Notes under the pieces: generated by a model
Databases searched by the model: none
Told to the model about the DNA's origin: nothing
The model's input: the letters and a program-made list of their open reading frames with translations, nothing else
In this document: positions 18,437-56,197 of the stretch, one piece after another
Layout: each line of letters opens with the position of its first letter
Numbering within the stretch: the stretch's first letter is position 1
NCBI RefSeq assembly: GCF_053078305.1
Contig: NZ_CP166879.1
DNA length: 64,000 nucleotides
Direction: 5' to 3' (one strand)
Position numbers and translations under genes: made by a program

Positions 18437-19618
18437 ATGCCACTTACTGTTCGGCAAATTGAGTCGGCCAAACCTGCTGACAAGGATTACAAACTTTCTG
18501 ATGGTCAAGGACTTTACCTTCTTATCAAGAAATCTGGCGCTCGTTACTGGAATCTGAAGTATCGATTTGCGGGTAAAGAAAAGAAATTGGTGATTGGTGT
18601 CTATCCAGGTATATCACTGGCTCTGGCGCGTCAGAAACGGGATGAAGCACGTAAACTCCTCGCTGAAGGAAAAGATCCTTCATATGAAAAACAGGCAAGT
18701 AAACATGCACTAAGAGAAAGTATTGCATGCACATTTTGTACTCTTGCAGAAGAGTTGTTCACACATATGGCTTGTCGTTGGACTGCGGGTTATTTAGCGG
18801 ACCAGCGTGCAAGATTCGAGAATCATATTAATCCCATGCTAGGGAAACGTCCTGTGGCTGATATTCGCCCCTTGGAAATATTGAATGCACTGAGGGTTAT
18901 AGAAAAGAATGGCAAACTTGAAGCGTTACGTAAGACTCGTCAGCTCTGTTCTCAAATATTTGATTACGCCATTGCGACGGGGCGCGCCACTATTAACCCA
19001 GCATCGACTCTCAACAGTGTTGTTCTTCATCCAGAAAAACAGCAGAGACGGATGCTATCTGAAGAACAGTTAGGCGCTTTCATGTACCAAATGAAAGTTT
19101 CAGGCAATTTTATGTCTCTGGTAACGCAAATACTGGTTCTAACTGCTGTTAGAACGGGAGAATTACGCCTTGCTACTTGGGATGAAATTGATTTTACCAA
19201 TGCCTTATGGGTAATCCCAAAAGAGAGAATGAAAATGCGAAGGCCGCATGTTGTTCCACTTTCTCATCAGACTCAAATGTTATTGAAAGAGATAAAAATA
19301 ATCACAGCTCCCCGTAACTCCGAGCTGGTTATTCCTGGTGTATACAGAGATAATCAACCTCGTGGTCGCGGTTGCATCAACGAGTTTCTTCAACAAGTTG
19401 GCTGGCATACATTCACTACAGCTCATGGTTTTCGGCATACTTTCAGTACCATTCTCCATGACCATGATTTCAGCTCTGCCTGGATTGAACTCCAGCTTGC
19501 CCATGTTGATAAAAACATCATGCGCGGCACCTACAACCACGCACAGTATCTCGATGGTCGTCGTGAAATGATGCAATGGTACGCTGACTACATTGATTCA
19601 CTTTCTGAGCAGGCCTGA
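18437..19618 (+). CDS. int: P4-type (phage) tyrosine integrase
   Basis: 393-aa ORF; N-terminal DUF4102-like MPLTVRQIESAKP...KDYKLSDGQGLYL and C-terminal catalytic region (HGFRHT...Y). Confidence 0.9.
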   Translation: MPLTVRQIESAKPADKDYKLSDGQGLYLLIKKSGARYWNLKYRFAGKEKKLVIGVYPGISLALARQKRDEARKLLAEGKDPSYEKQASKHALRESIACTFCTLAEELFTHMACRWTAGYLADQRARFENHINPMLGKRPVADIRPLEILNALRVIEKNGKLEALRKTRQLCSQIFDYAIATGRATINPASTLNSVVLHPEKQQRRMLSEEQLGAFMYQMKVSGNFMSLVTQILVLTAVRTGELRLATWDEIDFTNALWVIPKERMKMRRPHVVPLSHQTQMLLKEIKIITAPRNSELVIPGVYRDNQPRGRGCINEFLQQVGWHTFTTAHGFRHTFSTILHDHDFSSAWIELQLAHVDKNIMRGTYNHAQYLDGRREMMQWYADYIDSLSEQA

Positions 19619-24556: not shown

Positions 24557-26635
24557 ATGTCACAGACACTTGCACTCCATCCCGCGAAAAAGCGGGATGC
24601 GATTTTCCTTTGGGTTTTGCTGGGCTGGCTGGCATTTATCCTGTTGCCGAGCTGGAGCCTCGATTATGGTCTGCTGGAGTCCACGAGTGATGAGATCCTC
24701 GAGGCGTACAGCTGGTCGCATTTTAATATCAGCTGGCTGTGGTATTTACTCCCGAGTTTGCTGCTGGTTCGCCCGTTTAATGAGGCCAAACGCGAGCAGC
24801 GTAGCCGTCATTATTTTGATGCCGGCTGGGCATTGCTTTGTATAGCGTTTATGGTCATCAGTGCCACCATCGTTGGCCGCGGTCTAGGCTACGCCGCCAT
24901 CGTGCTGTTTATCGAATTAAGCGCGATAATGACGCTGGCCTTAACCCGCCTCGAATGGCTGGGTGGCGACCGCTTTGTGATCGGCTCGCTGATTGCGATT
25001 GTGGCGCTGATTGGCATTTTTATCGTCTGGCCGAGCATCGCCATTTTTATCCCGATGTTCGCCAACGACGCGGGAGAGTTCGCCCCACTGGCGTTTATGA
25101 ATGTGCTCTCGCAGGCCCATATCATTCAGGTGATCGTCAACTCTATCGTCTTATCGATAGCGGTGGGTATTGGCTGCACTTTCTTCGGTCTGGTGCTGGC
25201 GATATATACCACGCGCATCGCTAAACGCAGCGCCGTAATCGGCCGCATCTTTTCCATTCTGCCAATTGTCACGCCACCGTTTGTGGTCGGCTTAGGCGTT
25301 ACGCTCATGATGGGGCGCTCCGGCTACATAACGGAATTTATGGTGGAGTGGTTTGGGCTGACCAACACCAACTGGCTGTATGGTTTTACCGGGATCTGGC
25401 TGGCACAGGTCCTGGCATTTACGCCAATGGCTTTTATGATCCTCGATGGGGCCATTAAAACCATTCATCCCTCGCTGGAAGAAGCCTCCTACACCCTGCG
25501 CGCCAGCCGCTGGCAAACCTTTAGCGGTGTGTTTGTGCCGTTGTTAAAGCCCGCGCTTGCCAATGCCTTTTTAATCGTCGTGGTGCAGTCACTGGCTGAC
25601 TTCAGTAACCCGCTGGTGCTTGGCGGCAACTTCGACGTACTGGCGACGCAAATTTACTTCTACATTACCGGCTCGCAGCTGGATTATCAGGCCGCCAGCA
25701 CCCTTGGCGCTTTCCTGCTGCTGTTCTCGCTACTGGTGTTCTGCGTCCAGTATATGTGGATTGGTAAACGCTCTTACGTCACGGTTTCCGGAAAGTCCTA
25801 CCGCGGCGATGTCCAGCCACTACCGGTCACCCTGGTGTGTAGCGTGGTCGCCATACTTGCGATATGGATTGCCTTTAACGCCCTGCTCTATGGCAGCATT
25901 TTCTACGGCAGCTTCACCGTGAACTGGGGCGTGGACTACACCCTAACGCTGGATAACTTTATCAAGTTATTTGGTCAGGGGATGAGCGACGGCGCGTGGC
26001 CTTCACTGTTAGATACCTTGCTCTACGCCGGGATTGCCGCACCCATTACCGCTATTTTTGGCCTGCTCATCGCCTGGGTGGTGGTGCGCCAACAATTCAA
26101 AGGCAAAAAGACCATCGAGTTCACCACCATGTTGTGCTTTGCCGTACCGGGTACAGTGGCGGGTGTCTCGTATATTCTTGCCTTTAATAGCGCCCCAGTC
26201 TATCTCACCGGAACGGCAGCAATTGTGATTATCTCGATGGTGATGCGTAACGTTCCGGTGGGTATTCGCGCCGGGATTGCAGGTCTGGGGCAGATCGACA
26301 AATCGCTGGATGAAGCCTCACTTAGCCTGCGTGCAGGTTCCCTGCGAACCATTACGCACATTTTACTGCCGTTATTACGCCCAGCTATTCTCTCGGCCCT
26401 GATTTACAGCTTTGTGCGGGCTATCACGACGGTCAGCGCCATCGTCTTTCTCGTCACGCCGGACACCCGCGTGGCAACCGCCTACATCCTTAACCGCGTA
26501 GAAGACGGCGAATATGGCGTAGCCATCGCCTACGGTTCGATTCTGATCGTGGTGATGCTGGCGATTATTTTCCTCTTTGACTGGCTGATCGGTGAAGCAC
26601 GTATTTCCCGTTCTAAAGCCAAAAACCAGGCGTAA
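24557..26635 (+). CDS. afuB: AfuB ABC transporter permease (two fused permease domains)
   Basis: ORF 24500-26635; start at MSQTLALHP gives 692 aa; duplicated ABC permease domains. Confidence 0.88.
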
Positions 26636-26646
26636 TGGAGCGCACT

Positions 26647-27693
26647 ATGAGTCAGAAAAATTTTGTGGAACTGCGCAACGTCACTAAACGATTCGGCAGT
26701 AATATGGTTATCGACAATATCAATCTCACCATCCCACAAGGGCAAATGGTGACGCTGCTCGGTCCTTCCGGATGCGGCAAAACCACCATTCTGCGTCTGG
26801 TTGCCGGGCTGGAAAAACCGAGCGAAGGGCAAATTTTTATAGATGGCGAAGATGTCACGCATCGTTCCATTCAGCAACGCGATATCTGCATGGTGTTTCA
26901 GTCATACGCTCTGTTCCCACATATGTCGCTGGGCGAAAACGTTGGCTATGGGCTGAAAATGCTTGGCGTGTCGCGTAATGAAGTGAAGCAGCGGGTGAAA
27001 GATGCGCTGGCAATGGTGGATCTGGAAGGATTCGAAGACCGCTATGTCGATCAGATTTCCGGCGGTCAGCAACAGCGTGTGGCTCTGGCCCGTGCGTTGA
27101 TCCTCAAGCCAAAGGTGCTGCTGTTTGATGAGCCGTTAAGTAACCTCGATGCCAACCTGCGCCGCAGTATGCGCGATAAGATCCGCGAGCTGCAAAAGCA
27201 GTTTAATATCACGTCGCTCTACGTGACTCACGATCAAAGTGAAGCTTTCGCGGTGTCCGACACTGTACTGGTGATGAATAAAGGTCACATCATGCAGATC
27301 GGTTCACCGCAGGAGCTCTATCGTCAGCCCGCCTCCCGCTTTATGGCAAGTTTTATGGGCGACGCCAACCTGTTCCCGGCGAACTTTAGCGAAGAGTATG
27401 TCGATATCTACGGTTATCGCCTGCCGCGCGCGGCGTATTTCCCGGTGCAAGGTAGAGGCACCGTCGGCGTTCGCCCGGAAGCCATCACCTTAAGCAATCA
27501 CGGCGAAGAGAGTCAGCGTTGTGTTATTCGCCATGTCGCTTACATGGGGCCGCAGTACGAAGTGACCGTAGAATGGCATGGTCAGGAGATTTTATTGCAA
27601 GTCAACGCCACTCGTTTACAGCCCGATACTGGTGAGCACTATTACCTCGAAATCCATCCTTACGGGATGTTTGTTTTAGCGGATTCGGCATAA
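26647..27693 (+). CDS. afuC: AfuC ABC transporter ATP-binding protein
   Basis: ORF 26635-27693; start at MSQKNFVEL (348 aa); Walker [10 protein letters not shown], signature LSGGQQQR, Walker B LLFDEP. Confidence 0.9.
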
Positions 27694-27725
27694 AAATAGC
27701 GCATAAAAGGTCCCCTCCAGCTCAG

Positions 27726-27744
27726 CTGTCTCTTATACACAAAT
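27726..27744. repeat. 19-bp sequence resembling an IS50/Tn5-type terminal inverted repeat (solo)
   Basis: CTGTCTCTTATACACAAAT matches the IS50 outside end / mosaic end at 17 of 19 positions; no partner end found in window. Confidence 0.35.
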
Positions 27745-28477
27745 AACCAGCCGGAGATTTGTGATGTCTGTCAGCCTGCTTTAGGGGGGACTCTTTCCAT
27801 CCGGTCACCCGCAGCCATTTTTTGAACTTTTCTTCACCCGTTGCTCTTCTCTTATATTTCATTTTCTTGTAAGCGCCCCATCAGCGACGTCTTGTGAAAA
27901 TTGTCCTGTCTGGCAACAATCGCGCCCATCTATATTGATGGGCTCGAACGATGAACTCTCAAACAACACTAGATATCACCGGCTTTCGCACTTATTTTCC
28001 AGACGCATTACGTCTCAGATTTGACGAGCAATTATCTGTCCGGGCAATCGCACAGCAGTTAAGACTCAGTTATTCCCCCATTCACAATCTCTTTCAACGA
28101 ATTAACGCCTCAGGTATTGTCTGACTATGACCCGAGTCCCTTTCATTCGCCCAACCGATACCATACTTTATGCCAACAGAAAGAATGAATGAACCGCGCC
28201 TAAAATCAGTGAAGACACATGGCACAAAGCGCGACATGTCTCACATTTAACCCCTGAGGGGGCAACAAGTATAAAACCGTTTTTTGATTAAGTGGTCGGA
28301 TATGAAAAAGGGAAGGTTTATGTGAAAAATACCTGTGTTTTCTTTGAAAACACACAACAGTATCAGGTTATTTATGTTTATACAGGGCGTTCCAAACTGA
28401 CCTGAATAATTACGCAAGTTGCAACAATAAAAACATTTTTGCCGTAGTGTGAGGTACTCCGGTAAATTGCTTTCCAG

Positions 28478-28675
28478 GTGCAGACAATGACTAACGAAGA
28501 ACTACAGGCAATCGCATTATCCATGCTTGAGCGCCAGCGCGAAAAAGTACACCAGCAACGAGAGTCTTTGCTTAACCCATCTCCATTCACCAGGCCAAAA
28601 CGATTGGAGCTTGAAGCATTCTTGGACAAATACCCACGGCGGCTTAAATCAGGCAAAACCAGACCACCAGGCTGA
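28478..28675 (+). CDS. Hypothetical small protein (weak call)
   Basis: 65-aa ORF in degraded AT-rich region; no recognisable motif. Confidence 0.2.
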   Translation: MQTMTNEELQAIALSMLERQREKVHQQRESLLNPSPFTRPKRLELEAFLDKYPRRLKSGKTRPPG

Positions 28676-29002
28676 TAGCTCACAGTTTGTTCTCCTATTC
28701 AATAAAGCGGATAAGAACCATCAGCGCGGTAGCGTAAGGCATTACTGCGCATTGCTTTACGAGTAATAACAATGGATTTATCACCAGAAGACGCAAAGTT
28801 TTTACGAGAACTGCAACACCGTATGCTCTGAGAAGCCATTATCGAACAGCAAACGGGCATGAGCGCCATAGACCCATTGCGATAAAAACGGGCCTCATCT
28901 CCTTTAGTTGACGACAATTCCAATGCGGATAAAACACGTCCACCACACTGATTACATTTTTCATTAGCACAGTGGTGTAATGCAGCATACGAGGAAAACC
29001 GG

Positions 29003-29197
29003 ATGAATGAGAACAGAATAAAAAGGCTGGAGCAACTGTTACAGGCACGCCAACGGGAGTTTGCCACTAAATGGGGACGTGCCGCGTTGCCACATGAACG
29101 CCTAACCTATTTTCCACTTGAAGACCTCATTAAAAATAATGGCAAAAAAATCAGGCCTGATAAGAAACACTTTTTAGAATGCAATGAAGACAAATAA
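29003..29197 (+). CDS. Hypothetical small protein (weak call)
   Basis: 64-aa ORF preceded by GAGGA ribosome-binding-like motif; no recognisable family. Confidence 0.3.
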   Translation: MNENRIKRLEQLLQARQREFATKWGRAALPHERLTYFPLEDLIKNNGKKIRPDKKHFLECNEDK

Positions 29198-29299
29198 CAA
29201 CAATCTGCATATTGCCACCAACCACAGATGTGGCATCGTTATCAGCGCGCTTGATTTTCTTTATATCCACTGACGAGCTTACCGGGGCACCTTTGTTTG

Positions 29300-29900
29300 C
29301 CGGTCATTCTGGTATCATGCAGATATTTACGGCGTACAAGCCCACTAGCATGACATTGTAATAAGGCCTGAGCCTAACGCTTTAATGTGTGTCATACACT
29401 CAGTGGCGTAATCGTTGACAATATGGTGCATGTAATCGTAAGTGTCCAGCGAAATCCATCTGGTCATAATCTGAAGCATCCGACAAAGTGGTGTCCACCA
29501 AATAAGTGATCTGCGCCCAATATCCTGAGCCGGAACTTTGACGAAGGCCAACGAAAAATGGGGGCGGATGTTACAGAGTTCTCGGTACAGGGGAAAAGTG
29601 GTACCTGTCGCCAGTTCTCCGATCTGTTTAACCGGGAAATTATCTCCTACAGCTTGTCAGAAAGGTCGGTGATGGAGCATCGTTAATACGATTCTGTACG
29701 ATGCATTCACAGTGCCCGGCCAGAGGATGCCCCGTCGCTGCATACGGATCAGGGTTGGCAATATCGAATCGCAGGCTATAGGCAAAGTTAAAAGCCCCAT
29801 GGAGTAACACAAAATATGCCGCACAAAGGAAACGGTCTGAATAACGCAGTGATGGAGAACTTCTTCGGCACACAGCTAAAGCGCATAGTGATCGAGCGCT
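29300..29900 (+). pseudogene. IS3-family transposase OrfB remnant (multiple frameshifts/stops)
   Basis: Frameshifted plus-strand translation gives PNILSRNF...ADVTEF, ...HTDQGWQY... and ...GNGLNNAVMENFFGT..., matching the IS3-family DDE-region consensus. Confidence 0.6.
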
Positions 29901-30744
29901 GATTCTGGCGAACAACTGAACTAACACATCAGAATCTGCATTATGTTAAATAAATATGAAAAGATGGTTTAAATACCCCGTTACTTTTGACTTACACTAT
30001 ACGGTATCGCTCGTTTAATATTCGCACCGGCCAGATTTTTATTTCTATTAGTTGTCACAATACTGAATGCGTACGACCACAGTATTCTGGCTCCTGTGTG
30101 GTCATGCTTTAATTCTGCGTTCCGGGCAGATAAGCAGTTGCTTGCAGGAATCCTTCTTGTGTTAATATCAGTTCCCCTTTTTACCAGTGCTGATTTCCAC
30201 ATTCCGTCCAACAGAGCTTATAGCCTTTCCCTGGATTATAGCATTGTCCGGCTGAAGTTCTTTTTGAATAATAATAGAAGCACTGCTGGCAGATCCAGTC
30301 CGTTTTTCATAACCAACTGTACTGATAACCATAATCTAATCAGTAGAAATTGAGTCGAAAATAAGCACTACTCCATACAGGATAATTAGAGGTCAGTTTG
30401 ATTATTCACAATTCATCATCAGCATTTTCTGTTTCTGACGAAATCAACATGAAAAGAACCATATATGATAATTATTATAATAACGGCTTTAATTGGAATA
30501 CATATATTACAACGTATTATATATAATTGGTATTCTGGGAACTATATTCTCAAAATACAGTAGAAACGAGGTATGTTTCTGGTGGAAAGGACAGTGGGAT
30601 TAAAAAGTAAGAATTGATAAAAAAAACGCCAGCAACACATAGTGCCGACGGAGGGAATACCCCATGGAGAAAATGTGATGCCTAGAGCATCATGAATATA
30701 TAATTAAAAATAGTTGGCGTTGTCAATACTTTCACAAAAATAAT

Positions 30745-30808
30745 TTTCGTAGTTTCGTAGTTTCGTAGTTTCGTAGTTTCGTAGTTTCGTAGTTTCGTAG
30801 TTTCGTAG
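30745..30808. repeat. Perfect tandem repeat (TTTCGTAG) x 8
   Basis: Eight head-to-tail copies of an 8-bp unit, directly visible in sequence. Confidence 0.95.
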
Positions 30809-32692
30809 TATAGAAAGATATTTTTATGCATGACCTACCTGAATTTGCTCCGGGTAGAGGTTATAAATAAAAATTGAATCACGACAAACACAATATTCAT
30901 AGTGTGGCGATGCCTACGCCAGCAAAAATAGCGCCAATAATGTTGGGAATATAATAGACACCAGACACACAGGCATCTCACTCCTTAACAAACAATAATC
31001 ATGATGTTTACTTTTACTTCACTAACTGTTTGCGCCTAAAGTGCGCACACTTAACCATTCAATAACAAATGGCAATATCCATAGCCATACGACTTTACCT
31101 TGTAATGTTCGGTATTTCTTTATAATTATTCTGGGAAATCTATCATTTATTTTTAAAATCAAATTATCTTGTTGTTTAAAAATAAGTTCACATACTTTAT
31201 CATCTTCTTCCACCATCAACATCTCTGCACACTTAAACATTTCAGAACATTCCTTTAGCACAGAAGAGTGATTATATGTCCAGTTCCCAGGCAATAATGC
31301 TTATGGATATTTAATTCATAATTTAGAGAATATTTTGTAATAATATTTGGCAGTATTCAGAAATACCTGAAAAATCATACTATACAGCCCCAGGGAATAG
31401 ATGAAGATTCTAAAAAAGCATTTCAACAATATATGCTTGTTAAAAATCCATATCGAAATGCCGTTGCAGCATTAATATATGCCTCATTCATAAAATGTAA
31501 AAGAGCAAGCTCGTACCAGTAGGGGGAAAATTCATTGATATGTCCTGTCAATACGTACAGAGCCCTGTCATGCTTGCCAGCACGTAACAATTCCGTCCCC
31601 AGTAACCAGCGTGTCCCCTGATTATTCTCAGGGTTATATGTTAGTATTTTATCAATGAGTATAACGGCATCCTGATGACGCTGTAAATGAACATTCGCCA
31701 GAATTGCAGCATAAAGAGCGCAAATGCATATGCCAGATAAGCGTGAATATCAATGATGTCAGGAGCATGTCAGGCAAGACGCCTGAGTTTGTTGACGTAA
31801 TTTGTTTCGTTTATTTCATCACTATCGTATGCGTCAAGAGTTTTTTCAAACTCATCCCGAAATGAGCCAAGCCTGGTTTCAGGAAATAAGAAATACCCCT
31901 GGTTATTGTTCACTTAAAAGTATAATTTGTAATTCAAATCCTGAGCCTGTAAAACGGGGAGTAACATATTCTACTCTGAAGAGAATAAAAGTCGTGATGC
32001 GATGTATCAAGCCCGGATTGTAATCCCAGATTAACATAGATCACAAAACAACTTATTCTTCACTAACGTCAAGATAAATATCGTTGTATGCCCTATCACG
32101 ACTACGAATACCAGCAAGATACAACTGACATACGGAAAGATACCACGTTTTTTACTCCCGAAAATAACGCTAAAAAGCTACTTCCCCATCGTTTGTCCTT
32201 AGTATTGTCAGCGCCAACAATGTGGGCTGGCATGATAAAGCTGTCTAGGAAATCGTTCACCTCCTCAGCGGACAATCCAAATGGTGATTGTCTCTGTTAA
32301 ACGTTTATTTTGAAGGTCGACTGAATAAGGTGATGACGCTGTAGAATTTTTCACGTGACACAGAATTTTGAACGCTTTCTCTTACAATATTTCAATGTTT
32401 CTATCAGTATTCGCCGGAAGAAGTCATCGACCAAATCATCCCAGTCGTCTCGCACCACTGACCATTCATGGTTGACATGTGGTGGAAATCCGCTTCTACA
32501 GAAACCATTTTTTATTCGCAAAACCGAACACGCCATACGGATAGCTGTTAACTGGCATGCCGAGGCAGTCGTTATTTATATTTAGTTTTGTCAATAATCT
32601 TTATTTTTTGTAAAAGGTAAATATAAATTATTCTCATTATTGTTTGTATTTGTGTATTGTCTTGCCGGTTAACATGATCGGAGATTAGTAAT

Positions 32693-34783
32693 ATGCGAAT
32701 AACCACTCTGGCTTCCGTAGTCATTCCCTGTCTCGGATTTTCAGCCAGCAGCATAGCTGCTGCAGAGGATGTGATGATTGTCTCGGCATCCGGCTATGAG
32801 AAAAAGCTGACTAACGCAGCCGCCAGTGTTTCTGTGATTAGCCAGGAGGAATTGCAGTCCAGCCAGTACCACGATCTGGCGGAGGCTCTGAGATCAGTAG
32901 AGGGTGTGGATGTTGAAAGTGGTACGGGTAAAACCGGTGGGCTGGAAATCAGCATCCGAGGAATGCCAGCCAGTTACACGCTGATACTGATTGATGGTGT
33001 TCGTCAGGGCGGAAGCAGTGACGTGACTCCCAACGGTTTTTCTGCCATGAATACCGGGTTCATGCCCCCTCTGGCCGCCATTGAGCGTATTGAGGTTATC
33101 AGGGGGCCGATGTCCACACTGTATGGCTCTGATGCGATGGGCGGTGTGGTGAATATCATTACCAGAAAGAATGCAGACAAATGGCTCTCTTCCGTCAATG
33201 CAGGGCTGAATCTGCAGGAAAGCAACAAATGGGGTAACAGCAGCCAGTTTAATTTCTGGAGCAGTGGTCCCCTTGTGGATGATTCTGTCAGCCTGCAGGT
33301 ACGCGGTAGCACACAACAGCGTCAGGGCTCATCGGTCACATCACTGAGCGATACAGCAGCCACGCGTATTCCTTATCCCACGGAGTCACAGAATTATAAT
33401 CTTGGTGCACGTCTTGACTGGAAGGTGTCGGAGCAGGATGTGCTCTGGTTTGATATGGATACCACCCGGCAGCGTTATGATAACCGGGATGGGCAACTGG
33501 GGAGTCTGACGGGGGGATATGACCGGACCCTGCGCTATGAGCGAAACAAAATTTCAGCTGGCTATGATCATACTTTCACCTTCGGAACATGGAAATCGTA
33601 TCTGAACTGGAACGAGACAGAAAATAAAGGTCGTGAGCTCGTACGCAGTGTACTGAAGCGCGACAAATGGGGGCTTGCCGGTCAGCCGCGGGAGCTTAAG
33701 GAATCGAACCTTATCCTGAATTCATTACTGCTTACCCCTCTGGGAGAATCTCATCTGGTTACGGTGGGGGGCGAGTTTCAGAGCTCGTCCATGAAAGACG
33801 GAGTTGTCCTTGCCAGCACAGGTGAAACTTTCCGGCAGAAAAGCTGGTCGGTATTTGCTGAGGATGAGTGGCATCTCACGGATGCACTTGCGCTGACTGC
33901 GGGCAGCCGCTATGAACATCATGAGCAATTCGGGGGACACTTCAGTCCGCGTGCATATCTGGTCTGGGATGTGGCAGATGCCTGGACGCTGAAAGGCGGT
34001 GTGACCACGGGATATAAGGCACCCAGAATGGGGCAGCTACATAAAGGGATTAGTGGTGTGTCCGGGCAGGGAAAAACAAATCTACTTGGTAACCCCGACC
34101 TGAAGCCGGAAGAGAGCGTCAGTTATGAGGCTGGGGTGTATTACGATAACCCCGCCGGTCTGAATGCCAATGTCACAGGTTTTATGACTGACTTCTCCAA
34201 CAAGATTGTCTCTTATTCCATAAATGATAACACCAATAGCTATGTAAACAGCGGAAAGGCCCGGTTGCACGGTGTGGAATTTGCCGGCACATTGCCGCTG
34301 TGGTCAGAGGATGTCACGCTGTCACTGAATTACACCTGGACCCGAAGTGAACAACGTGATGGTGATAACAAAGGTGCGCCGCTGAGTTATACCCCTGAAC
34401 ACATGGTGAATGCGAAACTGAACTGGCAGATCACCGAAGAGGTGGCATCATGGCTGGGTGCCCGTTATCGCGGGAAAACACCACGTTTCACCCAGAATTA
34501 TTCGTCACTGAGCGCTGTACAGAAGAAAGTGTATGATGAGAAAGGAGAATACCTGAAAGCCTGGACGGTGGTGGATGCAGGTCTGTCGTGGAAGATGACG
34601 GATGCCCTGACGCTGAATGCTGCGGTGAATAACCTGCTCAACAAGGATTACAGTGACGTGAGCCTGTTCAGTGCCGGTAAGAGTACGCTGTATGCCGGTG
34701 ATTACTTCCAGACGGGATCATCAACAACGGGATATGTGATACCTGAGCGAAATTACTGGATGTCGCTGAACTATCAGTTCTGA
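32693..34783 (+). CDS. iha: TonB-dependent outer-membrane receptor, Iha-like (IrgA homologue adhesin / siderophore receptor)
   Basis: 696-aa ORF; signal peptide, TonB box (DVMIVSAS), plug domain and C-terminal aromatic beta-barrel terminus (NYQF); length and sequence recalled as Iha. Confidence 0.7.
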   Translation: MRITTLASVVIPCLGFSASSIAAAEDVMIVSASGYEKKLTNAAASVSVISQEELQSSQYHDLAEALRSVEGVDVESGTGKTGGLEISIRGMPASYTLILIDGVRQGGSSDVTPNGFSAMNTGFMPPLAAIERIEVIRGPMSTLYGSDAMGGVVNIITRKNADKWLSSVNAGLNLQESNKWGNSSQFNFWSSGPLVDDSVSLQVRGSTQQRQGSSVTSLSDTAATRIPYPTESQNYNLGARLDWKVSEQDVLWFDMDTTRQRYDNRDGQLGSLTGGYDRTLRYERNKISAGYDHTFTFGTWKSYLNWNETENKGRELVRSVLKRDKWGLAGQPRELKESNLILNSLLLTPLGESHLVTVGGEFQSSSMKDGVVLASTGETFRQKSWSVFAEDEWHLTDALALTAGSRYEHHEQFGGHFSPRAYLVWDVADAWTLKGGVTTGYKAPRMGQLHKGISGVSGQGKTNLLGNPDLKPEESVSYEAGVYYDNPAGLNANVTGFMTDFSNKIVSYSINDNTNSYVNSGKARLHGVEFAGTLPLWSEDVTLSLNYTWTRSEQRDGDNKGAPLSYTPEHMVNAKLNWQITEEVASWLGARYRGKTPRFTQNYSSLSAVQKKVYDEKGEYLKAWTVVDAGLSWKMTDALTLNAAVNNLLNKDYSDVSLFSAGKSTLYAGDYFQTGSSTTGYVIPERNYWMSLNYQF

Positions 34784-35429: not shown

Positions 35430-36248
35430 TTAAGCAGCCATCTGATGATATTTTTCCCTGAAGGCTGCCGGGGAGATATTCCCCAGACGAGAGTGACGAC
35501 GCTGACGATTGTAGAAAATCTCAATGTATTCCCGTATTACTGAGATGGCCTCATCCCGGCTCTTAAAACGATAGTGGCTCAGGCTCTCATTTTTCAGCGT
35601 TCCCCAGAAGCTTTCCATCGGAGCGTAGTCGTAACAGTTACCTTTACGCGACATTGATGTTTTCAGACCAAACTGCTCCTGTATGACCCGGTAATCGTAT
35701 GCGCAGTACTGTGAACCTCGATCGGAGTGGTGGATTAGCCCGGCAGGTGGGCGCTGGCTCCTGAGCGCCATAAACAGGGCTTTACCTGTCAGCTCTTTTG
35801 TCATGCGCTCTCCCATGGCGTAGCCGACAATTTCGCACGTATAAACATCTTTGATGCCAGCGAGGTACAACCATCCCTCCTGTGTGGCAACATACGTCAG
35901 GTCCGCCACCCAGACCTGATTTGGTGCTGTAGGAGCGAACGTCTGGTTCAGCAGATTTGGCGCAACTGGCAGATTGTGGTTCGAGTTCGTAGTCGCTCTG
36001 AACTTGCGTTTATGCTTACAGCGTAGCCTTAGCTCCTTACGAAGACGTGCCAGTCGGTCACGACCAACGATGATGCCATTCTCTGCCAGCTCCGTCTGGA
36101 GCCGCCGGGTTCCATATGTTTCGCGAGTGCGGATATGTGCCACCTTAATCTCCAGTTTTAGCCGCTCATCACTTTGTTTTCTGTCTGAGGGTTCATGCTG
36201 TACCCGGTTGTAATAACCGCTCCTGGATACACCAAATACCTGACACAT
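35430..36248 (-). CDS. IS600 OrfB (DDE integrase-core transposase; expressed as OrfAB by frameshift)
   Basis: 272-aa ORF with HSDRGSQY and SMSRKGNCYDYAPMESFWGTLKNE motifs. Confidence 0.88.
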   Translation of the reverse strand: MCQVFGVSRSGYYNRVQHEPSDRKQSDERLKLEIKVAHIRTRETYGTRRLQTELAENGIIVGRDRLARLRKELRLRCKHKRKFRATTNSNHNLPVAPNLLNQTFAPTAPNQVWVADLTYVATQEGWLYLAGIKDVYTCEIVGYAMGERMTKELTGKALFMALRSQRPPAGLIHHSDRGSQYCAYDYRVIQEQFGLKTSMSRKGNCYDYAPMESFWGTLKNESLSHYRFKSRDEAISVIREYIEIFYNRQRRHSRLGNISPAAFREKYHQMAA

Positions 36249-42752: not shown

Positions 42753-44300
42753 CTACTTGCGTAGCGATAAAATTGCCCGTGCGGTTTCAGCACGGTTATA
42801 GATCTGCATTTTTTTTATTGCAGCATCCACATCTTCACCGCTTTTCTTATTCAGTTTAATCAGAAACTCAACAGGTAATAGCGAAGCTAAATTTTCAAAT
42901 TTTGATTCAGACCAAGTAATGGTTGCAACAGCCCCTTCAGTTCTCTTAATCATTAGTTTTTTAAGTAATTCTAAACGCTCTGGCTCAACAGTTATATAAC
43001 CAATCGGCAGGGTTAATGCACTATCAGAATTAGGTTGACCGTGGTATTGCACCAAAGCAATCACATCAGGAATTAAGAGGATCTCCAAACGATCAAATTT
43101 AGCCTCTGAAGTAAGGCCAATACCGGTAGGAAAACGACCTAAGTGCCGCTTACGCTCTTGACGTTTTTCACCTTCATCTGCACTTGAGTGTAAAAGCGAA
43201 ATGCGAGCAATCTTATCATCGGCATAATTGCCAAGTATATCGCCTAGAGCGCGAGTAAAACGCGAAAGTTGACTACCATTAGCTCCCCACAGTGGTACTT
43301 TACTGCTATACCACAGCGCTTTTGGAGCTGTTTTACCTATATAATCACGTAATGCATTATGCAACATACTAATGAACAGCTTAGAATTGTGCGGCAAATA
43401 AACAGCCCCTAACATGCCGGTAGTCAATGAAGTACCGTAGCCAGTTTTACGTTGTTCACGAGCCTCTATCCAGCCGGAATAGTTGAACTTATAACCATTA
43501 GCAAATTGTAACAACACTTTATCATTTGCTAGTTTACAGAAATCTTCACAGTCGATACCGAATTCATCTAGTTTATGTTCTCCCAAAAAATCTGCGATAT
43601 GAGCTTCCAGCTCGTTTGAAAGCGGCAGCCGGGTGTTACCTAAATATTCATAGGAACGAGTAAATTTCTGCGGCTCAATGCTCCCAGCAGAAACACCGTA
43701 GCTAACCTCTATCTCTATTGGGAGCTGCACCATCTCATGCGAACTACAGCCCATTATCTTATATAATTTAGTCCGTTGACGCTCATACTCGCTGTTGCGG
43801 CTGAGCAAAAGATGGTGCCGAAACTGGGAACTAAAAGCCTCTGTTACCGCAGCAGCATCTCCCCCGATCTGATGCCGCGGCAATAGCTCTGGCAGTCCAG
43901 AAGTAAAACGACGATTTGGTTGCGGTTTACATATCGAAAGAGTTAGTAGATCGAATGCAACTTCCTCCGTACATTCTTGATATTTAACTAAACTTGGCTT
44001 CCCACCATTATTAGCTGCATGCTTACGTAGGAATGAGCTAGCCTCAATATGCCCATCAGGATTAATGTTGATCAGTCTGTTAGCCAGCAACCCATCAAGC
44101 AATACCTCTCGCTCACGATCAGTTAGACCAAAGTAATTCTGTAACTCGCTGGGATAGAGTTGATCAAAAATCAGCAGCAAGCGACATGCAAACTGTTCAA
44201 TTCCAGGCATCAGTTTTTCAGTGGTCAAAGCGCAGTTGATCTTGTAACTACGCGCAGGTAGTAAAACGGTAATCAGATTACCCAGACGTGGTTCTGACAT
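42753..44300 (-). CDS. Hypothetical 515-aa protein, translationally coupled partner of the NERD-kinase-helicase gene
   Basis: Long ORF with start ATG overlapping upstream TAA (TAATG); no recognisable motif by eye. Confidence 0.8.
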   Translation of the reverse strand: MSEPRLGNLITVLLPARSYKINCALTTEKLMPGIEQFACRLLLIFDQLYPSELQNYFGLTDREREVLLDGLLANRLININPDGHIEASSFLRKHAANNGGKPSLVKYQECTEEVAFDLLTLSICKPQPNRRFTSGLPELLPRHQIGGDAAAVTEAFSSQFRHHLLLSRNSEYERQRTKLYKIMGCSSHEMVQLPIEIEVSYGVSAGSIEPQKFTRSYEYLGNTRLPLSNELEAHIADFLGEHKLDEFGIDCEDFCKLANDKVLLQFANGYKFNYSGWIEAREQRKTGYGTSLTTGMLGAVYLPHNSKLFISMLHNALRDYIGKTAPKALWYSSKVPLWGANGSQLSRFTRALGDILGNYADDKIARISLLHSSADEGEKRQERKRHLGRFPTGIGLTSEAKFDRLEILLIPDVIALVQYHGQPNSDSALTLPIGYITVEPERLELLKKLMIKRTEGAVATITWSESKFENLASLLPVEFLIKLNKKSGEDVDAAIKKMQIYNRAETARAILSLRK

Positions 44301-47300
44301 TAGTTGTTATCTCCAAGCAGACTTTGACCACACAGGATTTGGTAGTTGGGTTCATCTACTGCAACCTGTTTACTAATAAATTCATGAACGTTTCCAAGTG
44401 CTGAATCATTATTGGTCTTTGACCACATACGCCTTGCTCCCAGAATCAATAACCTTTCTTGAGCTCGCGAAATAGCAACGTTTATTCGCGGCGCGTCGCG
44501 CAGGAAACCTTGTAGTTTGTTGGGATTATCGCGAACCAGACTGAGGATAATTATCTTGTTTTCCTGGCCCTGATATGAATCAACGGTATCGATCTTGATC
44601 AAACCACGTAACGATGCAGCCCATTCAGCCCGACTGATAGCATTGTCAATTTCCTCTTTTTGCTGACGATACATTGTGATTATACCAATAGGATATGGCT
44701 GTTCTGTGGTAATAGTTTGCTCAAGCTGTGCAATGCAGCCATCACTCGACAATGACTGCAAAGCCTCTAGCAGTAGCCGGACTTCTCGTTGATTATAGTA
44801 ACGACCATTACCCTTATGTTCTTCTGCACCTGCTTCATTAGGGCTCGAACTATCGATCCAAGTAACAGTTTTGTTCCAAGGGATTGGTAACTTGGAATAC
44901 CAATCTGGCGAGACTTTCCTCGATGAATGCAGTTTACCGATATCTTGAGCGTAAAAGCACTCCGATACTAACTCGCCAATTGGTTCTACCATTCGATATT
45001 GAGTATCGAGTGTTACGCCGCCTGTTGCTTTAAAAGCACGTTCAAAATCAGACTCATAAAAGATCCCTTTCCCGAGTTCTAATTTCTTAGAGGCTAACTT
45101 AAGATGCTGTTGATGATAGAATGGTGGCAATTGTTTATGATCCCCTACCAACAGCACCCGCTTGCCTGATTGCAGCGCTACCATCAATTCAGCAGCTTGT
45201 GCTCGGCCAGCCTCATCAACTATTACCCAATCAAAGCTGGACTCAGCTAGTTCTAGTCGACGATTCCCAACACCAACAAGAGTTCCACAAACCAATCGCT
45301 TACTTTTGAACATAAATCGATCAAATCCAGCCTCGCCGCCGCGTAATACATCCATCCACTCTTGGCTCATTTCCAATAGCTGCATAAAACGTTCAAGGTT
45401 CTCTGGATTGTTATAATTGTATTGTATGGCAACTTGCTCAGCCAACTGTCTTATCAAGGTTTCATCATAGACAAGAGTTTTCAGCAAGCTGTCATCGAAT
45501 ATTGAGTTAATAATTTCTTGTGTTCGCAGTTTAAGCTGATTGCTTTGTTCTAATAATTCAGCCAGTCGCTCTTGATGACTAATACTACTACTCTTTATTT
45601 GTTCTACTTTATCCAGCTCACGGCTATATTGGCCATATGTCACCATCAAGGGATTCAGCGTACGATGTAACTGACATAACTGTTGGACTAATAATGGGGC
45701 CATCCCTAGGCGCTTTCCTAGGGAGCTAACTCGCAGATCATATTCACGGTGAAATTTATGCTGAATCTGTCGCTGAAGAGCTTTAGTTGCAACACTTAGC
45801 ATACCCTCATCAATCATAAGTTCATTACCAATACGTACTGTATCCAGTTCCATTCCTTTCGTATGGCAGAGCTCTCGAGCCTTGATGGCTACATTATCAA
45901 CAGAGGCATGGGATTGCCCGACCAAAAGAATGTTATTCACACCGCAATGTTGATACAGATAGTGAATAAATTTTGAAATAAATGTTGTTTTACCTGTTCC
46001 AGGTGGTCCCTGCAGAACTCCAACTGGTCCAAACTCGACCAACTGTTGAAATGCCATTAGCTGCTGTTCATTAAAACGTTGTCCAGGCTGATCATAAAGT
46101 GCGCGTAATGTCTCCGCGGATGGCCGCGGTTGCATTTGCTGCATGCAGGGTTTCTGGTGGTAATCAAAATACTGTGGCAGATGCTGGATCTCTGCTTTGT
46201 TTTCAATTACCCGTTGAAGGGCTCTTTGACGCAACTCTCTTGATGATTTGTCACGGATCGATTCCAATTGTAGCTGGCTGCCGCTACTAATTCGCTTACG
46301 AGCAGCATCAAAATCAAAGCGAATAGCCAATAGACTCGGCGTAGTCTCACTTAGCTGCAATTCCCCTAATTGCACTGATTCACGCTTATCTTTAATATAA
46401 ACAATGATCTTATCATCAAGTTCAAAGCTGAGGTCAGCACCGGATTCCGTAGTATATGGGTAGAGTAAGCAACCACTCGGTGATTCCTGAAAGTCAGTAG
46501 AGTCGATGTTGACTATATCTCGTAGGTCTACTTCTGTATCAGATAATGCCTGCCATAACTCAATTGGGCTTGACTCACTACTATCGAAGTCATCTTCATC
46601 CATCTCTTGATTAGGATTAGCTCGCTCAATGATGGCATCAATTACTGGCTCGAGGTTAAACAGTAGTTCAATAAAAGTATTACGCTGATTAAGTGAGCCA
46701 CGTTGTAATGAAAGTTGAGTATTAATTTTAGCCTGGGAATATTTACCAGCCTTTATACTTTCTTCGATCGATAATCCTTTTTCATACACTATTCTATTAA
46801 TAGTGCGATTATCAGGATCTAAGTCTATCAATAGCCGCTCTCCTAGGCCAGTGATGTAACAACGCAATTCATGCGCAAAGCGTGGGTTAGATGACCAGTT
46901 ACATTGAAAATAATAGATCCCATCATTTTGTTCTAGAAGCTTCACTTCTTGCGGCCAATCATCTGTGCCCCAGCAAACAGGAATTACCTTATCCTGTGAC
47001 TCAGACGCCACAACTTGATTAATCTCAGCTTGTTCCGGTGCTCGAATTGACTGCAGCAAAGGATCGAGCGCGATAGGTATACCGTCAACGGTTTGTTTTG
47101 CGCGTTCTAGCTCAGCCTGCACCAGTACTGGCATATCTTCACTAAATAGCTCCTCCACCATACGATATACTGCAAAGCAATCTCGCCCAAAAGCATCAGT
47201 ACTTTCGGGATTCTCTGGCTGGTAGCGATTATCTGCAGTTAATTCATCACTGAATTCAAGCAATCCAATCAGAGTAATTACTGTCTGCTCCCCGACTTGT

Positions 47301-49258
47301 ACCAGCAGTTTCTCTGGGCAAAGATCTCCATGAGGTAACTGCTTTTCATGAAAAGCATGAATGGTGTTGATCAACTTTTCCGCAATTGTAAAACGTTGGG
47401 ATTGTACTAACACGTTCTCAGCAATAAACTGTGACCACGGTAGGCCATCCACATACTCGCTCACTACATACAAGCCGCCTTGTCCTAATAGTCCATAGGA
47501 CTGCACCTTAGGAGTTGGCAGATTTATATGCGTAAGCTTATCGATCCGTTGCTTAAAAGCGTGGATACGGCGGTTAACACCAGGTTGTTGAGGGGTCAAA
47601 ATAACACCATCCCACAATTTTACCTGCAGAGCTTTCCCACCTTGTTCACAGTGATAACTGATGCTGCCAGTCGTAGCAATAGCAGCAAGAGCAGAGTAAA
47701 CCATAGACAACTGTTCAGGAAGTGGAGGAAACTCAATTAACACACCAACGCTGTTCATCCCTTCGCGAAAGAATTTGTTTTGCTTTAATTCTTGATAAAT
47801 CTGGTTAGCTTCATCAAATTCTTGGCTATGTTCCTTAGTAGCTGCATTAAACTCATTGAGCATTATGTCCGCACGTGGAAAGCGTTTACTTGGCTCAAGG
47901 TTAAGAGCTTGCTCAAACCAGCTATTTAGAATACCGCTAAAAGGATCAGTTAATGGAGCTCTCCATTCAGGCATCTGTCCAGGAGTCAGTAATGATTCAC
48001 CTGCAAAACAAATACGATAAGCAATTACAGCCAACATGAATACATCTAGGCGATAGGGCTCAACTGCTTCTTCAAAAGCATCTTCGGGCAAAATATATGG
48101 AGCACTTTGCAATGTCGGACGCAATGACTCTAGGCTATTATGTCCCTCCAGTGAGGCTGCGCCAAAGCCAGTAACGACAATGCTCTTCTGATCCCCTGCG
48201 TACCATAGATTGTGCGGGTCAATATCACAATGACTGATACCCAAGCTATGTAATTCCGAGAATGGAGCTAATAATGCACGAACGCGATCAATACGCTCAG
48301 ATTTACTCCATCCGTCAGCTTCGCTATCTAGAATCTCATCTAATCGGCTAAAACTACGGCGTAACTCATACAGCTCACGGGCATCATCAGTTATATCCTC
48401 CTCGGATAGTTCCCTTACAGCACGCAACATATAATCCTGCATAGTTGCGCTGCCATGACGAACTAGGCGACCGACTCGAGTCTCACGCAGAGCTATCTCA
48501 GCCCACAATGTTTGCATTGCGTTTGCTACACCCAAGGCATCAAAGTTCCACTGCCGTAGCAGACCTCTGTGTTGACTATTGTCTTTGTGGGTAGCCCTGA
48601 ATTCGTTGTAGACCATGTGAGGGTGACTAAAGAATGGCTTATCGTTCGCAAGATAACCGCTTTCTTTTAGTGGCAAAGGCCTGACTTTTGGTCCTTCAAA
48701 GAAGGACTTAATTATAGGTAATGCCTCATCAGAATTTGGTCGAGGCTTTCCCCCTTCAAAAAGATGAAAAAAGTTAGTGTGTTGCACCAGCTTTTCGTAA
48801 TTTTTTGGGTTACCTATAGTCAAGAATTCATCACGGGTATGAACATAGCGCCTCTCACTTAATGGCAAGTTTTCAGGACCAGCTGTGCCACACAGCACTA
48901 CATGAGCCTCAACATGCAAAAAGTAACCCAGCTTACGAGATAACTCTTCCTGCAACAAATCTTTTAGTCGCAGTGCATGCTCACGCTTGATCTGATAGGG
49001 ACTTTTGCCTCGTGACTTACCATTTTGCAGCCACTTCCCCCCTTCAAATGTGATGTTACCATTCCACTCTTTAAGCTCGACTAATAGCAGACGGTCAGCA
49101 GTAATAATTAGCATATCGATTTCCATCGACCCTTGGCTATCAGTAACAACTAAGCCAGCATAGCCAAACCAACTATCTGGTAACTGCTTAACCATCATAT
49201 CAACTGTTTTGGTTTCGCTGCGGTGCAGGCCAGCACCACCTACTATCTGATACTTCAC
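44300..49258 (-). CDS. 1652-aa multidomain protein: N-terminal NERD-like nuclease domain, two protein-kinase-like domains, C-terminal SF1 (Upf1/DNA2-like) helicase
   Basis: NERD-like D...ELK region (aa ~45-65); kinase catalytic-loop-like HCDIDPHN (aa 343-350) and HGDLCPEK (aa 643-650); Walker A GPPGTGKTT (aa ~1084), Walker B VIVDEAG, SF1 motif TVDSYQGQE. Confidence 0.85.
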   Translation of the reverse strand: MKYQIVGGAGLHRSETKTVDMMVKQLPDSWFGYAGLVVTDSQGSMEIDMLIITADRLLLVELKEWNGNITFEGGKWLQNGKSRGKSPYQIKREHALRLKDLLQEELSRKLGYFLHVEAHVVLCGTAGPENLPLSERRYVHTRDEFLTIGNPKNYEKLVQHTNFFHLFEGGKPRPNSDEALPIIKSFFEGPKVRPLPLKESGYLANDKPFFSHPHMVYNEFRATHKDNSQHRGLLRQWNFDALGVANAMQTLWAEIALRETRVGRLVRHGSATMQDYMLRAVRELSEEDITDDARELYELRRSFSRLDEILDSEADGWSKSERIDRVRALLAPFSELHSLGISHCDIDPHNLWYAGDQKSIVVTGFGAASLEGHNSLESLRPTLQSAPYILPEDAFEEAVEPYRLDVFMLAVIAYRICFAGESLLTPGQMPEWRAPLTDPFSGILNSWFEQALNLEPSKRFPRADIMLNEFNAATKEHSQEFDEANQIYQELKQNKFFREGMNSVGVLIEFPPLPEQLSMVYSALAAIATTGSISYHCEQGGKALQVKLWDGVILTPQQPGVNRRIHAFKQRIDKLTHINLPTPKVQSYGLLGQGGLYVVSEYVDGLPWSQFIAENVLVQSQRFTIAEKLINTIHAFHEKQLPHGDLCPEKLLVQVGEQTVITLIGLLEFSDELTADNRYQPENPESTDAFGRDCFAVYRMVEELFSEDMPVLVQAELERAKQTVDGIPIALDPLLQSIRAPEQAEINQVVASESQDKVIPVCWGTDDWPQEVKLLEQNDGIYYFQCNWSSNPRFAHELRCYITGLGERLLIDLDPDNRTINRIVYEKGLSIEESIKAGKYSQAKINTQLSLQRGSLNQRNTFIELLFNLEPVIDAIIERANPNQEMDEDDFDSSESSPIELWQALSDTEVDLRDIVNIDSTDFQESPSGCLLYPYTTESGADLSFELDDKIIVYIKDKRESVQLGELQLSETTPSLLAIRFDFDAARKRISSGSQLQLESIRDKSSRELRQRALQRVIENKAEIQHLPQYFDYHQKPCMQQMQPRPSAETLRALYDQPGQRFNEQQLMAFQQLVEFGPVGVLQGPPGTGKTTFISKFIHYLYQHCGVNNILLVGQSHASVDNVAIKARELCHTKGMELDTVRIGNELMIDEGMLSVATKALQRQIQHKFHREYDLRVSSLGKRLGMAPLLVQQLCQLHRTLNPLMVTYGQYSRELDKVEQIKSSSISHQERLAELLEQSNQLKLRTQEIINSIFDDSLLKTLVYDETLIRQLAEQVAIQYNYNNPENLERFMQLLEMSQEWMDVLRGGEAGFDRFMFKSKRLVCGTLVGVGNRRLELAESSFDWVIVDEAGRAQAAELMVALQSGKRVLLVGDHKQLPPFYHQQHLKLASKKLELGKGIFYESDFERAFKATGGVTLDTQYRMVEPIGELVSECFYAQDIGKLHSSRKVSPDWYSKLPIPWNKTVTWIDSSSPNEAGAEEHKGNGRYYNQREVRLLLEALQSLSSDGCIAQLEQTITTEQPYPIGIITMYRQQKEEIDNAISRAEWAASLRGLIKIDTVDSYQGQENKIIILSLVRDNPNKLQGFLRDAPRINVAISRAQERLLILGARRMWSKTNNDSALGNVHEFISKQVAVDEPNYQILCGQSLLGDNN

Positions 49259-53712: not shown

Positions 53713-53798
53713 AACAGGTGTCCACTAGTTGAAAAGGTGGGCACCTACGTTACCAATACTGGCTTAATGGCTACATACGGCGGTCAGTTTACGCTTAC

Positions 53799-55921: not shown

Positions 55922-56197
55922 CTATTTTTTATCTTCTTTTCTTTCTTGTAACTTTGCTTTTATCCAAATACCAATCCCTGCTAACATACCAGCCCCTCCC
56001 CCCACCTTTAAAGAATAAATAATATCTGCCCTCCAATCAAAAAATAAAACTTGAGTTTTAGAAAAAACTATCAGTCTACCAAGAATAGTACCTAACATTG
56101 CCATAAAAAAGATGCAAGCTATGCAGCGCATTATTAGTATGATAAGAATGTAAAAGTTGACACTCTTATTTATTTTTAATGGATTTATCAGCTTCAT
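55922..56197 (-). CDS. cdiI: Putative CdiI immunity protein (small polytopic membrane protein)
   Basis: 91-aa hydrophobic ORF immediately downstream of and overlapping the cdiA 3' end; start may be an internal Met. Confidence 0.6.
   Translation of the reverse strand: MKLINPLKINKSVNFYILIILIMRCIACIFFMAMLGTILGRLIVFSKTQVLFFDWRADIIYSLKVGGGAGMLAGIGIWIKAKLQERKEDKK

Follow-up and report, generated by a model that had tools for sequence, protein, structure and literature searches.

Esr41, also called EcOnc14, is an Hfq-dependent small RNA (sRNA) of Escherichia coli O157:H7 encoded in SpLE1/OI-43/48 beside iha (PMC5286369), where its gene lies between z1181 and z1182 (PMC5286369; PMC8565820). It directly represses cirA, chuA and bfr (PMC5286369). 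It also confers resistance to colicins Ia and Ib, with a fitness cost under iron limitation, increases motility via fliA/fliC and decreases LEE (locus of enterocyte effacement) expression (PMC5286369; PMC8565820; PMC9387321; PMC7873438). In the literature this sRNA carries the label of being specific to enterohaemorrhagic E. coli (EHEC), and Waters et al. speculated that it is co-selected with Iha. Here we analyse the segment of about 5 kb that separates afuC from iha in a stretch of 64,000 nucleotides from contig NZ_CP166879.1 (assembly GCF_053078305.1), the stretch being referred to below as the window. We are rather confident that this segment is an ancestral mosaic, made of insertion sequence (IS) remnants and of two dead cargo genes, which is carried along with iha; within it, esr41 is apparently the only element whose gene structure is intact and recognisable. 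In its main points the finding is already known, since both Esr41 and its iha neighbourhood have been published. The sequence, anatomy, synteny and population distribution of the block given below are direct observations.

A preliminary description of this DNA had proposed that the segment could hide small RNAs, and one is indeed present, although it is a published one (PMC5286369). The minus strand matches the Rfam model of Esr41 over positions 1-74 of 74 (99.8 bits, E 5e-19), which is the sole Rfam match at E <=1 between 26500 and 34000 (coordinates of all features are collected in Table 1). The RNA is laid out as a 5' stem-loop, the single-stranded CACAUUUUCUCCAU, a second stem-loop, and a terminator made of an 8-pair hairpin (-11.2 kcal/mol) followed by U8. 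The -10 box ends 6 nt ahead of the Rfam 5' end of the RNA, and an A/T-rich AAAATTATTTTT lies upstream of the -35 box at about 30736-30747. We take this stretch to be UP-element-like, going by the published consensus. Compared with 14 other copies from 13 loci, the promoter is identical save for one C/T polymorphism in the spacer. Among those copies the RNA ahead of its U tail varies at position 2 only (A/G, with G in the metagenomic loci L018 and L019), the seed region is invariant, and the length of the U tail differs.

The closest described relative is the esr41 locus of O157. As there, the gene is divergent to iha at a distance of about 2 kb and stands between the same two open reading frame (ORF) remnants, and in O157:H7 EDL933 the Rfam match to Esr41 falls between ORFs of 111 and 72 amino acids beside iha. 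The window RNA equals the O157 one at 73 of 74 positions up to the U tail and has the same promoter. Unlike the O157 locus, the island in the window adjoins afuABC, shows no ter or ure genes as far as it can be seen, and belongs to a host lineage other than O157. The window also has eight copies of an upstream 8-bp repeat instead of one, a frameshifted receptor stub and a private C to U change in the RNA. A second comparison can be made with RyhB, the core-genome iron-sparing sRNA, which is likewise Hfq-dependent and targets bfr, cirA and chuA (PMC5286369). However, the two sequences are unrelated, Esr41 represses cirA whereas RyhB activates it, and no Fur box matching at least 13 of 19 positions overlaps the Esr41 promoter.

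The C to U change, at 30648 in the terminator stem, is absent from the 14 other copies. It weakens the terminator hairpin by 2.7 kcal/mol, from -13.9 to -11.2 kcal/mol, and alters the predicted minimum-energy fold. It is also the reason why the window match falls 2.2 bits under the Rfam gathering score of 102, whereas the orthologous position in eight loci scores 103.4-108.6 bits. Either a true allele or an error in base calling could account for it. By extension of the O157 mechanism, we infer that in this strain Esr41 is expressed and binds Hfq, and that its single-stranded CACAUUUUCUCC would repress the cirA, chuA and bfr mRNAs by pairing near their ribosome-binding sites. This repression would reshape iron uptake and give resistance to colicins Ia and Ib, with an indirect rise in motility and fall in LEE expression. 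Pairing of Esr41 with the 5' region of iha itself was considered and set aside, as the best predicted energy (-14.3 kcal/mol) was equalled by 163 of 500 shuffled sequences.

How the rest of the segment came to be is best read from its distribution. From 28250 through iha (aligned to 35000), and thus including the block of about 4.4 kb upstream of iha, the window is 97.5-98.7% identical to EDL933. This block is found in three chromosomal contexts: next to afuC (the window and comparison loci L001 and L006), next to atoB with IS66 remains (L005 and L007), and next to AlpA and glycosyltransferase genes (the O157 locus L004, and L008). The NCBI annotation pipeline, PGAP, records the same pseudogenes in near-identical genomes. 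Because the same broken genes recur in all three contexts, the erosion happened once, in an ancestor, and the wreck travels with iha; on these comparisons the state of the segment is neither local decay nor an assembly problem. We envisage that insertions of IS4/Tn5, IS66 (twice) and IS3 elements in succession would have truncated or inactivated the original genes of an AT-rich stretch of about 4.4 kb, these genes presumably being a second Fur-type TonB-dependent receptor and a tetratricopeptide repeat (TPR) protein. The wreck and iha would then have moved as one block between E. coli genomic islands, and the left 550 bp or so (the IS4/Tn5 end and the IS66 tnpA stub) would link this block to afuC here. 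The segment had previously been called an eroded former cargo region. The erosion is plain, but most of the debris is IS wreckage (one end of IS4/Tn5 type, two of IS66 type and the IS3 fragment), and the second receptor and the TPR protein are the only two identifiable broken cargo genes. The segment had also been described as AT-rich with no ORF above about 120 codons, which agrees with a GC content of 0.31-0.48, against 0.50-0.55 in the flanking afuC and iha, and with a longest ORF of 122 codons (28699-29067, minus strand), followed by ORFs of 101, 95 and 90. By a rough estimate, these sizes are about those expected of non-coding DNA of like composition.

All population counts were made on 5426 complete E. 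coli genomes. In 677 of them at least 80% of the 5-kb segment is covered, mostly at 95-99% identity, and the Esr41 region occurs in 694, including uropathogenic (UPEC), avian pathogenic (APEC), O104:H4, bovine (commensal-type) and avian isolates. Esr41 is thus not restricted to EHEC. In a scan of 100,044 species-representative genomes for an exact 29-mer of Esr41, which would miss diverged homologues, nothing was found outside Escherichia apart from a single 4.3-kb contig, which bears the label "Collinsella" from binning but contains the E. coli block. The gene iha itself is present in 1574-1586 of the 5426 genomes; about 44% of these carriers keep Esr41 and 56% are without it. In sequence type 131 (ST131), Esr41 has been lost to an IS3 insertion, and an IS3-family element stands about 500 bp upstream of iha.

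Several points weigh against our reading of the segment. The pairing of Esr41 with iha is not obligatory, given the retention among iha carriers and the loss in ST131. The function of Esr41 in this strain is likely but not certain because of the private terminator change and the sub-threshold score. Purifying selection cannot be demonstrated, since the gene and its promoter hold 4 variable sites in 127 bp, a density not clearly lower than that of the adjoining pseudogene DNA, and no excess conservation over the flanks was detectable. In addition, about 1.8 kb of the segment (28250-29437 and 31921-32540) consists of orphan stretches. The first three of these points can be turned into an alternative in which the entire segment is inert, the Esr41 allele of the window included, and is kept by physical linkage to iha with Esr41 unexpressed or non-functional: the sRNA is evidently dispensable for iha carriage, is no better conserved than its surroundings, and has a weakened terminator here. 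Against this, the TTGACA promoter with its 17-bp spacer, the seed and the U-tailed terminator are intact and identical to those of O157 alleles that are functional in experiments (PMC5286369), and a single change from G-C to G-U still leaves the 8-pair hairpin at -11.2 kcal/mol. We therefore hold a wholly inert segment to be improbable, and prefer a wreck that retains one sRNA gene.

Table 1. Features of the segment between afuC and iha, with positions in the window.
Feature	Position	Strand	Remarks
Segment	27694-32692		between afuC/fbpC stop (26635-27693, +) and iha start (32693-34783, +)
IS4/Tn5-family IS left end and leader	27726-27868	+	ends ~10 bp short of transposase start in other copies
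IS66-family left end, truncated tnpA	27869-28249	+	GTAAGCG at 27869
Orphan stretch common to window and O157 OI-43/48	28250-29437		EDL933 homology begins at 28250
Small ORFs in 28250-29437	28478-28675; 29003-29197; 28699-29067	+; +; -	without recognisable family
Second IS66-family terminal fragment, 70 bp, ISEc8-like	29438-29507	+	GTAAGTG at 29439
IS3-family transposase internal fragment (catalytic core)	~29508-29895	+	frameshift and stops
Second Iha-like TonB-dependent receptor, N-terminal (plug-region) stub	29981-30332	-	frameshifted in window
Fur-box-like cluster	30461-30485		between Esr41 terminator and receptor stub
Esr41 sRNA gene, 74 nt	30618-30691	-	Rfam RF02676
Esr41 promoter	30692-30744	-	-35 TTGACA 30721-30726; 17-bp spacer; -10 TTATAT 30698-30703; start G 30691
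Perfect 8-bp tandem repeat	30745-30808		(TTTCGTAG)8 on plus strand; (CTACGAAA)8 on Esr41 strand
20-codon hydrophobic ORF MPVCLVSIIFPTLLALFLLA	30914-30976	-	AAGGAG Shine-Dalgarno
Broken TPR-repeat protein gene, ~350 aa	31022-31920	-	in-frame stop, ~130-bp internal deletion, frameshifts, divergent 3' end
Orphan stretch	31921-32540		minus-strand frame 32536->32102 open save two stops
Fur-box-like site in iha promoter region	32623-32641		13/19 to Fur consensus

At the left of the segment, the 19-mer CTGTCTCTTATACACAAAT at 27726-27744 is the terminal inverted repeat of an IS. It agrees at 17 of 19 positions with the IS50 outside end CTGACTCTTATACACAAGT (mismatches at positions 4 and 18), as had been noticed from the sequence, and equally at 17 of 19 with the mosaic end CTGTCTCTTATACACATCT (mismatches at positions 17 and 18), both reference sequences being given in PMC3347997 and PMC2566895. 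At up to 3 mismatches the window has a single occurrence, where 0.01 occurrences are expected by chance, so that no partner end exists anywhere in the window within that limit. Portions of the stretch 27714-27868 are found again in 3484 E. coli genomes, for the most part with 80-90% identity. In O157 (beside espL2, nleB and nleE) and in ST131, the same stretch lies immediately 5' of coding sequences (CDSs) annotated as 'IS4/Tn5 family transposase DNA-binding protein'. In a three-way alignment homology sets in exactly at the 19-mer, and in the window it stops at 27868. Since the homology of the copies begins precisely there, the 19-mer is a genuine IS end. It had been asked whether it might be assembly or adapter carry-over, and its bases 1-16 are indeed those of the Tn5 mosaic end of tagmentation (Nextera) adapters; however, it departs from the adapter at positions 17-18, and together with 140 bp of homologous DNA it stands 5' of annotated IS4/Tn5 transposases in independent complete genomes. 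This refutes carry-over, to which we leave a practically negligible chance.

As in IS50 and Tn5, the 19-bp repeat sits at the extreme end of an element of the IS4/Tn5-transposase type, but the 140 bp next to it are those of another, degenerate IS4-family element of E. coli and not of IS50 itself. The element is severed at 27868 by an IS66 end and has no transposase gene, so it is a remnant. That ORF 27722-27862 on the minus strand might encode the C-terminal end of a transposase like that of IS50 was ruled out, as this stretch is the left end and leader located upstream of the transposase start elsewhere.

The IS66 end that follows contains a 57-codon ORF (27951-28124) which had been flagged as helix-turn-helix (HTH)-like. 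The ORF exists and gives weak HTH matches (Pfam HTH_29 and HTH_23, E 0.08-0.23), but it is no regulator: it corresponds to about the first 45 residues of IS66 TnpA (NCBIfam NF038385, IS66_access_TnpA, positions 1-45 of 190, E 1e-13) and matches a transposase family in PHROG (2422, E 1.6e-14). An IS630-type or stand-alone regulator was dropped in favour of this assignment. The DNA of the whole IS66 remnant is 78-85% identical to plasmid regions with annotated IS66-family tnpA, and PGAP calls the equivalent stretch an IS66 TnpA pseudogene in the atoB-context genomes L005 and L007. Only the end and some 45 codons of tnpA remain, tnpB and tnpC being absent. The second, ISEc8-like fragment has counterparts with 81-93% identity in many enterobacterial plasmids and Shiga toxin (Stx) phages, and the matching site in Stx2 phage 1717 is annotated 'insertion sequence: ISEC8'. 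Elsewhere in the window there are two full-length IS66-family transposase genes, at 51296-52909 (minus strand) and 53737-55320 (plus strand).

The frameshifted IS3-family transposase remnant of the preliminary description was recovered as well. Pfam rve matches at about 29561-29833 (E 2e-6) and NCBIfam NF033516 (E 5e-22) only from position 202 to 325 of its 369, and full OrfAB is absent; in near-identical genomes PGAP records this fragment as a 'DDE-type integrase' pseudogene. Downstream of iha, a transposase remnant of IS600, also of the IS3 family, is found at 35430-36248 (minus strand), and CE0007a, the closest relative, has an additional IS30 insertion downstream of iha.

The first of the two dead cargo genes is the receptor stub, which corresponds to an intact 111-aa ORF in O157 (L004 7728-8063). 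This ORF aligns over about 70 N-terminal residues with positions 28-97 of NCBIfam NF010012 (E 2.3e-7), a TonB-dependent receptor model whose 696 positions equal the length of Iha. The stub has no beta-barrel, only these plug-side residues being alignable, and in near-identical genomes the corresponding CDS is marked as frameshifted by PGAP. Some 285 nt upstream of the stub, and in the same orientation, stands Esr41, with Fur-box-like sites between the two. The cluster there matches GATAATGATAATCATTATC at 13-14 of 19 positions on both strands, and a further such site (13-14/19) is found at 30318-30336. In the segment as a whole, 10 sites reach 13 of 19 matches or more, compared with 2.5 +/- 2.2 in shuffled sequences. 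The cluster may be a relic of the iron-regulated promoter of the receptor, and this arrangement suggests an ancestral order of esr41, iron-regulated promoter and receptor gene, an order that we propose by inference only. The promoter region of iha has a site of this kind too, and iha is Fur-regulated. A search for DNA paralogy between the region upstream of iha and that of Esr41 and the receptor stub returned only chance matches of 12-21 bp.

The second dead gene encoded a TPR protein. A possible TPR-like fragment had been seen on the minus strand, and it is present at about 31459-31683, where it reaches only E 1e-3 by itself against Pfam ANAPC3; it proves to be a part of a much longer pseudogene of about 350 aa. 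A homologue occurs in an Escherichia-like genome (L014 8001-9054). With this homologue as query, tblastn yields four collinear pieces between window positions 31913 and 31085, with 67%, 87%, 58% and 48% identity. By blastn, window 31920-31722 corresponds to L014 7994-8192 and window 31721-31067 to L014 8323-8980, leaving L014 8193-8322 unmatched. A reading spliced from two overlapping ORFs of L014 passes the Pfam gathering thresholds for ANAPC3 (32.9 bits) and TPR_19 (27.1 bits). The pseudogene includes a 47-aa ORF (31770-31913) as well as the 72 aa, at 31024-31242, for which PGAP gives a 'hypothetical protein' in near-identical genomes.

Two orphan stretches make up the part of the segment to which no origin was assigned. 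In the first, the small ORFs have no match in Pfam, PHROG or NCBIfam. A 64-aa ORF, compared with 5.8 billion proteins, has 16 short relatives (35-90 aa, 60-100% identical), and the named ones among them are all hypothetical proteins of Escherichia or Shigella, with no wider family. A phage collection gave no match to this region other than the IS66 end. In the second stretch, the long minus-strand frame has no homologues outside the locus, the protein search returning only iha-adjacent variants of the same locus. Patches of 57-93 bp in 32212-32379 are 83-89% identical to unannotated DNA on plasmids of Salmonella and E. coli and to the DNA that flanks yopM on its 3' side in Yersinia pestis pCD1.

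The suggestion that the segment might hide small toxins comes down to a single candidate, the 20-codon ORF, which could represent a gene for a small toxic or membrane peptide; some other unrecognised small gene would be a variant of the same idea. Its AAGGAG Shine-Dalgarno is strong, its product is very hydrophobic and loosely resembles the Ibs-type peptides, and 7 of 8 haplotypes keep the ORF intact. Just upstream of it, at the 3' end of the TPR pseudogene, there is a substitution hot spot (31000-31060), with up to 39 variable sites per 150 bp among the eight haplotypes, compared with 1-8 in most flanking windows. A 12-pair hairpin there is kept in all haplotypes despite this heavy substitution (93% paired). 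However, the haplotype of L019 has lost the start codon (ATG to ATA) together with the Shine-Dalgarno, and the ORF shows 4 non-synonymous against 2 synonymous changes. Profile searches of the PHROG and NCBIfam type found no family for it, and no Sib-like or other Rfam antisense RNA appears nearby at E <=1. The hairpin has no covariation beyond column composition: its pairing is equalled in 211 of 500 column shuffles and its covariation score in 165 of 500, so a structured RNA at the hot spot was discarded. Gene conversion from a paralogue is an unlikely source of the hot spot, because the patch is single-copy in each genome. We conclude that the 20-codon ORF is probably not functional, and a hidden peptide or other small gene in the segment seems to us very improbable.

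The remaining feature of the segment is the perfect 8-bp tandem repeat upstream of Esr41, at -54 to -118 relative to its start, for which the program TRF gives 8.1 copies at 100% matches. Its end coincides with the A/T-rich UP-like element, and this element and the -35 box are left uninterrupted. Counted directly in the compared loci, copy number takes the values 1, 2, 4, 5, 6, 8, 9, 11 and 13. One copy is present in EDL933, TUM14664 and the Collinsella-labelled contig, two in NCTC9112 and one metagenomic contig, four in another metagenomic contig, and 11 and 13 in two atoB-context genomes. Five genomes that differ from the window, which has eight copies, by 2-8 substitutions per 5 kb carry 8, 6, 9, 6 and 5. 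The array thus changes far faster than by point mutation. Across the population, copy number was estimated with a one-copy query by splitting the 695 carrier records according to identity: the 615 records at 99% or more are mainly single-copy, with a few matches in two pieces that have 6-9 copies, the 70 records at 90-95% are two-copy, and for the 9 at 80-90% about 3-4 copies can be inferred. Overall, about 80% of carriers have a single copy and about 45 records have at least five. The array is non-coding, as every unit has a stop on the plus strand and the minus-strand frame shifts with copy number; this also removes a candidate phase-variable 49-aa ORF running through it (30682-30831, minus strand), since copy number modulo 3 varies and each unit contributes a TAG on the plus strand. 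In the literature library that we searched, no paper contained the repeat string or linked iha, tandem repeats and Esr41.

Contingency repeats in promoters are known from the TAAA tract of Neisseria nadA and the 7-bp repeats of Haemophilus hmw. Like them, the Esr41 repeat is perfect, short, just upstream of a promoter and quicker to change in copy number than by point mutation; unlike them, it has a unit of 8 bp, is single-copy in most carriers and precedes an sRNA gene instead of one for a surface protein. It is tempting to speculate that the array is a contingency element acting as a rheostat, in which slipped-strand changes of copy number would move upstream DNA relative to the Esr41 promoter and tune its output. 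The nine copy numbers of a perfect repeat, the alleles of 5, 6, 8 and 9 among haplotypes at most 8 single-nucleotide polymorphisms (SNPs) per 5 kb apart, and the position of the array against the A/T-rich element are what such an element would lead one to expect. However, the core promoter and UP-like element are the same whatever the copy number, single-copy carriers, the large majority, are unable to slip, no regulator site is known upstream, and a neutral microsatellite in non-coding DNA would be hypervariable too. On balance we judge tuning by the array unlikely, and the fuller claim, that the (CTACGAAA)n tract at -54 is a slipped-strand rheostat setting the amount of Esr41 in each lineage, slightly less likely again.

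As to the wider setting, the island apparently begins at a tyrosine recombinase gene (18437-19618) adjoining ulaE/ulaF. From the recombinase up to 27693 there follow a two-component system, a uhpC-like gene and afuABC, and then the Esr41-iha block; the window contains no tRNA gene. Beyond iha, a Mokosh anti-phage defence pair is encoded at 42753-49258 (minus strand), with an MkoB of 515 aa (PADLOC PDLC03923, E 1e-61) and an MkoA of 1652 aa (PDLC03921, E 0) that has NERD, kinase-like and SF1 helicase domains. At 56166-63986 (minus strand) a very large ORF of the filamentous-haemagglutinin kind, listed with 2606 codons, has haemagglutinin repeats and a PT-VENN pre-toxin domain, and is of the CdiA contact-dependent inhibition toxin type.

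The block that accompanies iha is, in our reading, ancestral wreckage with one sRNA gene, and to see it this way guards against over-interpreting its ORFs. PGAP has no RNA gene at the position of Esr41 in near-identical genomes and calls the TPR and receptor pieces "hypothetical proteins", while an Rfam pass at the gathering threshold would miss this copy of Esr41 altogether. The retention of Esr41 in about 44% of iha carriers qualifies the published idea of Esr41-Iha co-selection. Of all the elements in the segment, the repeat is the only one that might repay experiment: as a variable-number tandem repeat (VNTR) upstream of Esr41 it is a cheap typing marker and a candidate modulator of the sRNA. 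If it were to set Esr41 output, an sRNA gene would be under contingency-locus control in E. coli, and iron-receptor choice, sensitivity to colicins Ia and Ib, motility and LEE expression would be heritable yet rapidly adjustable.

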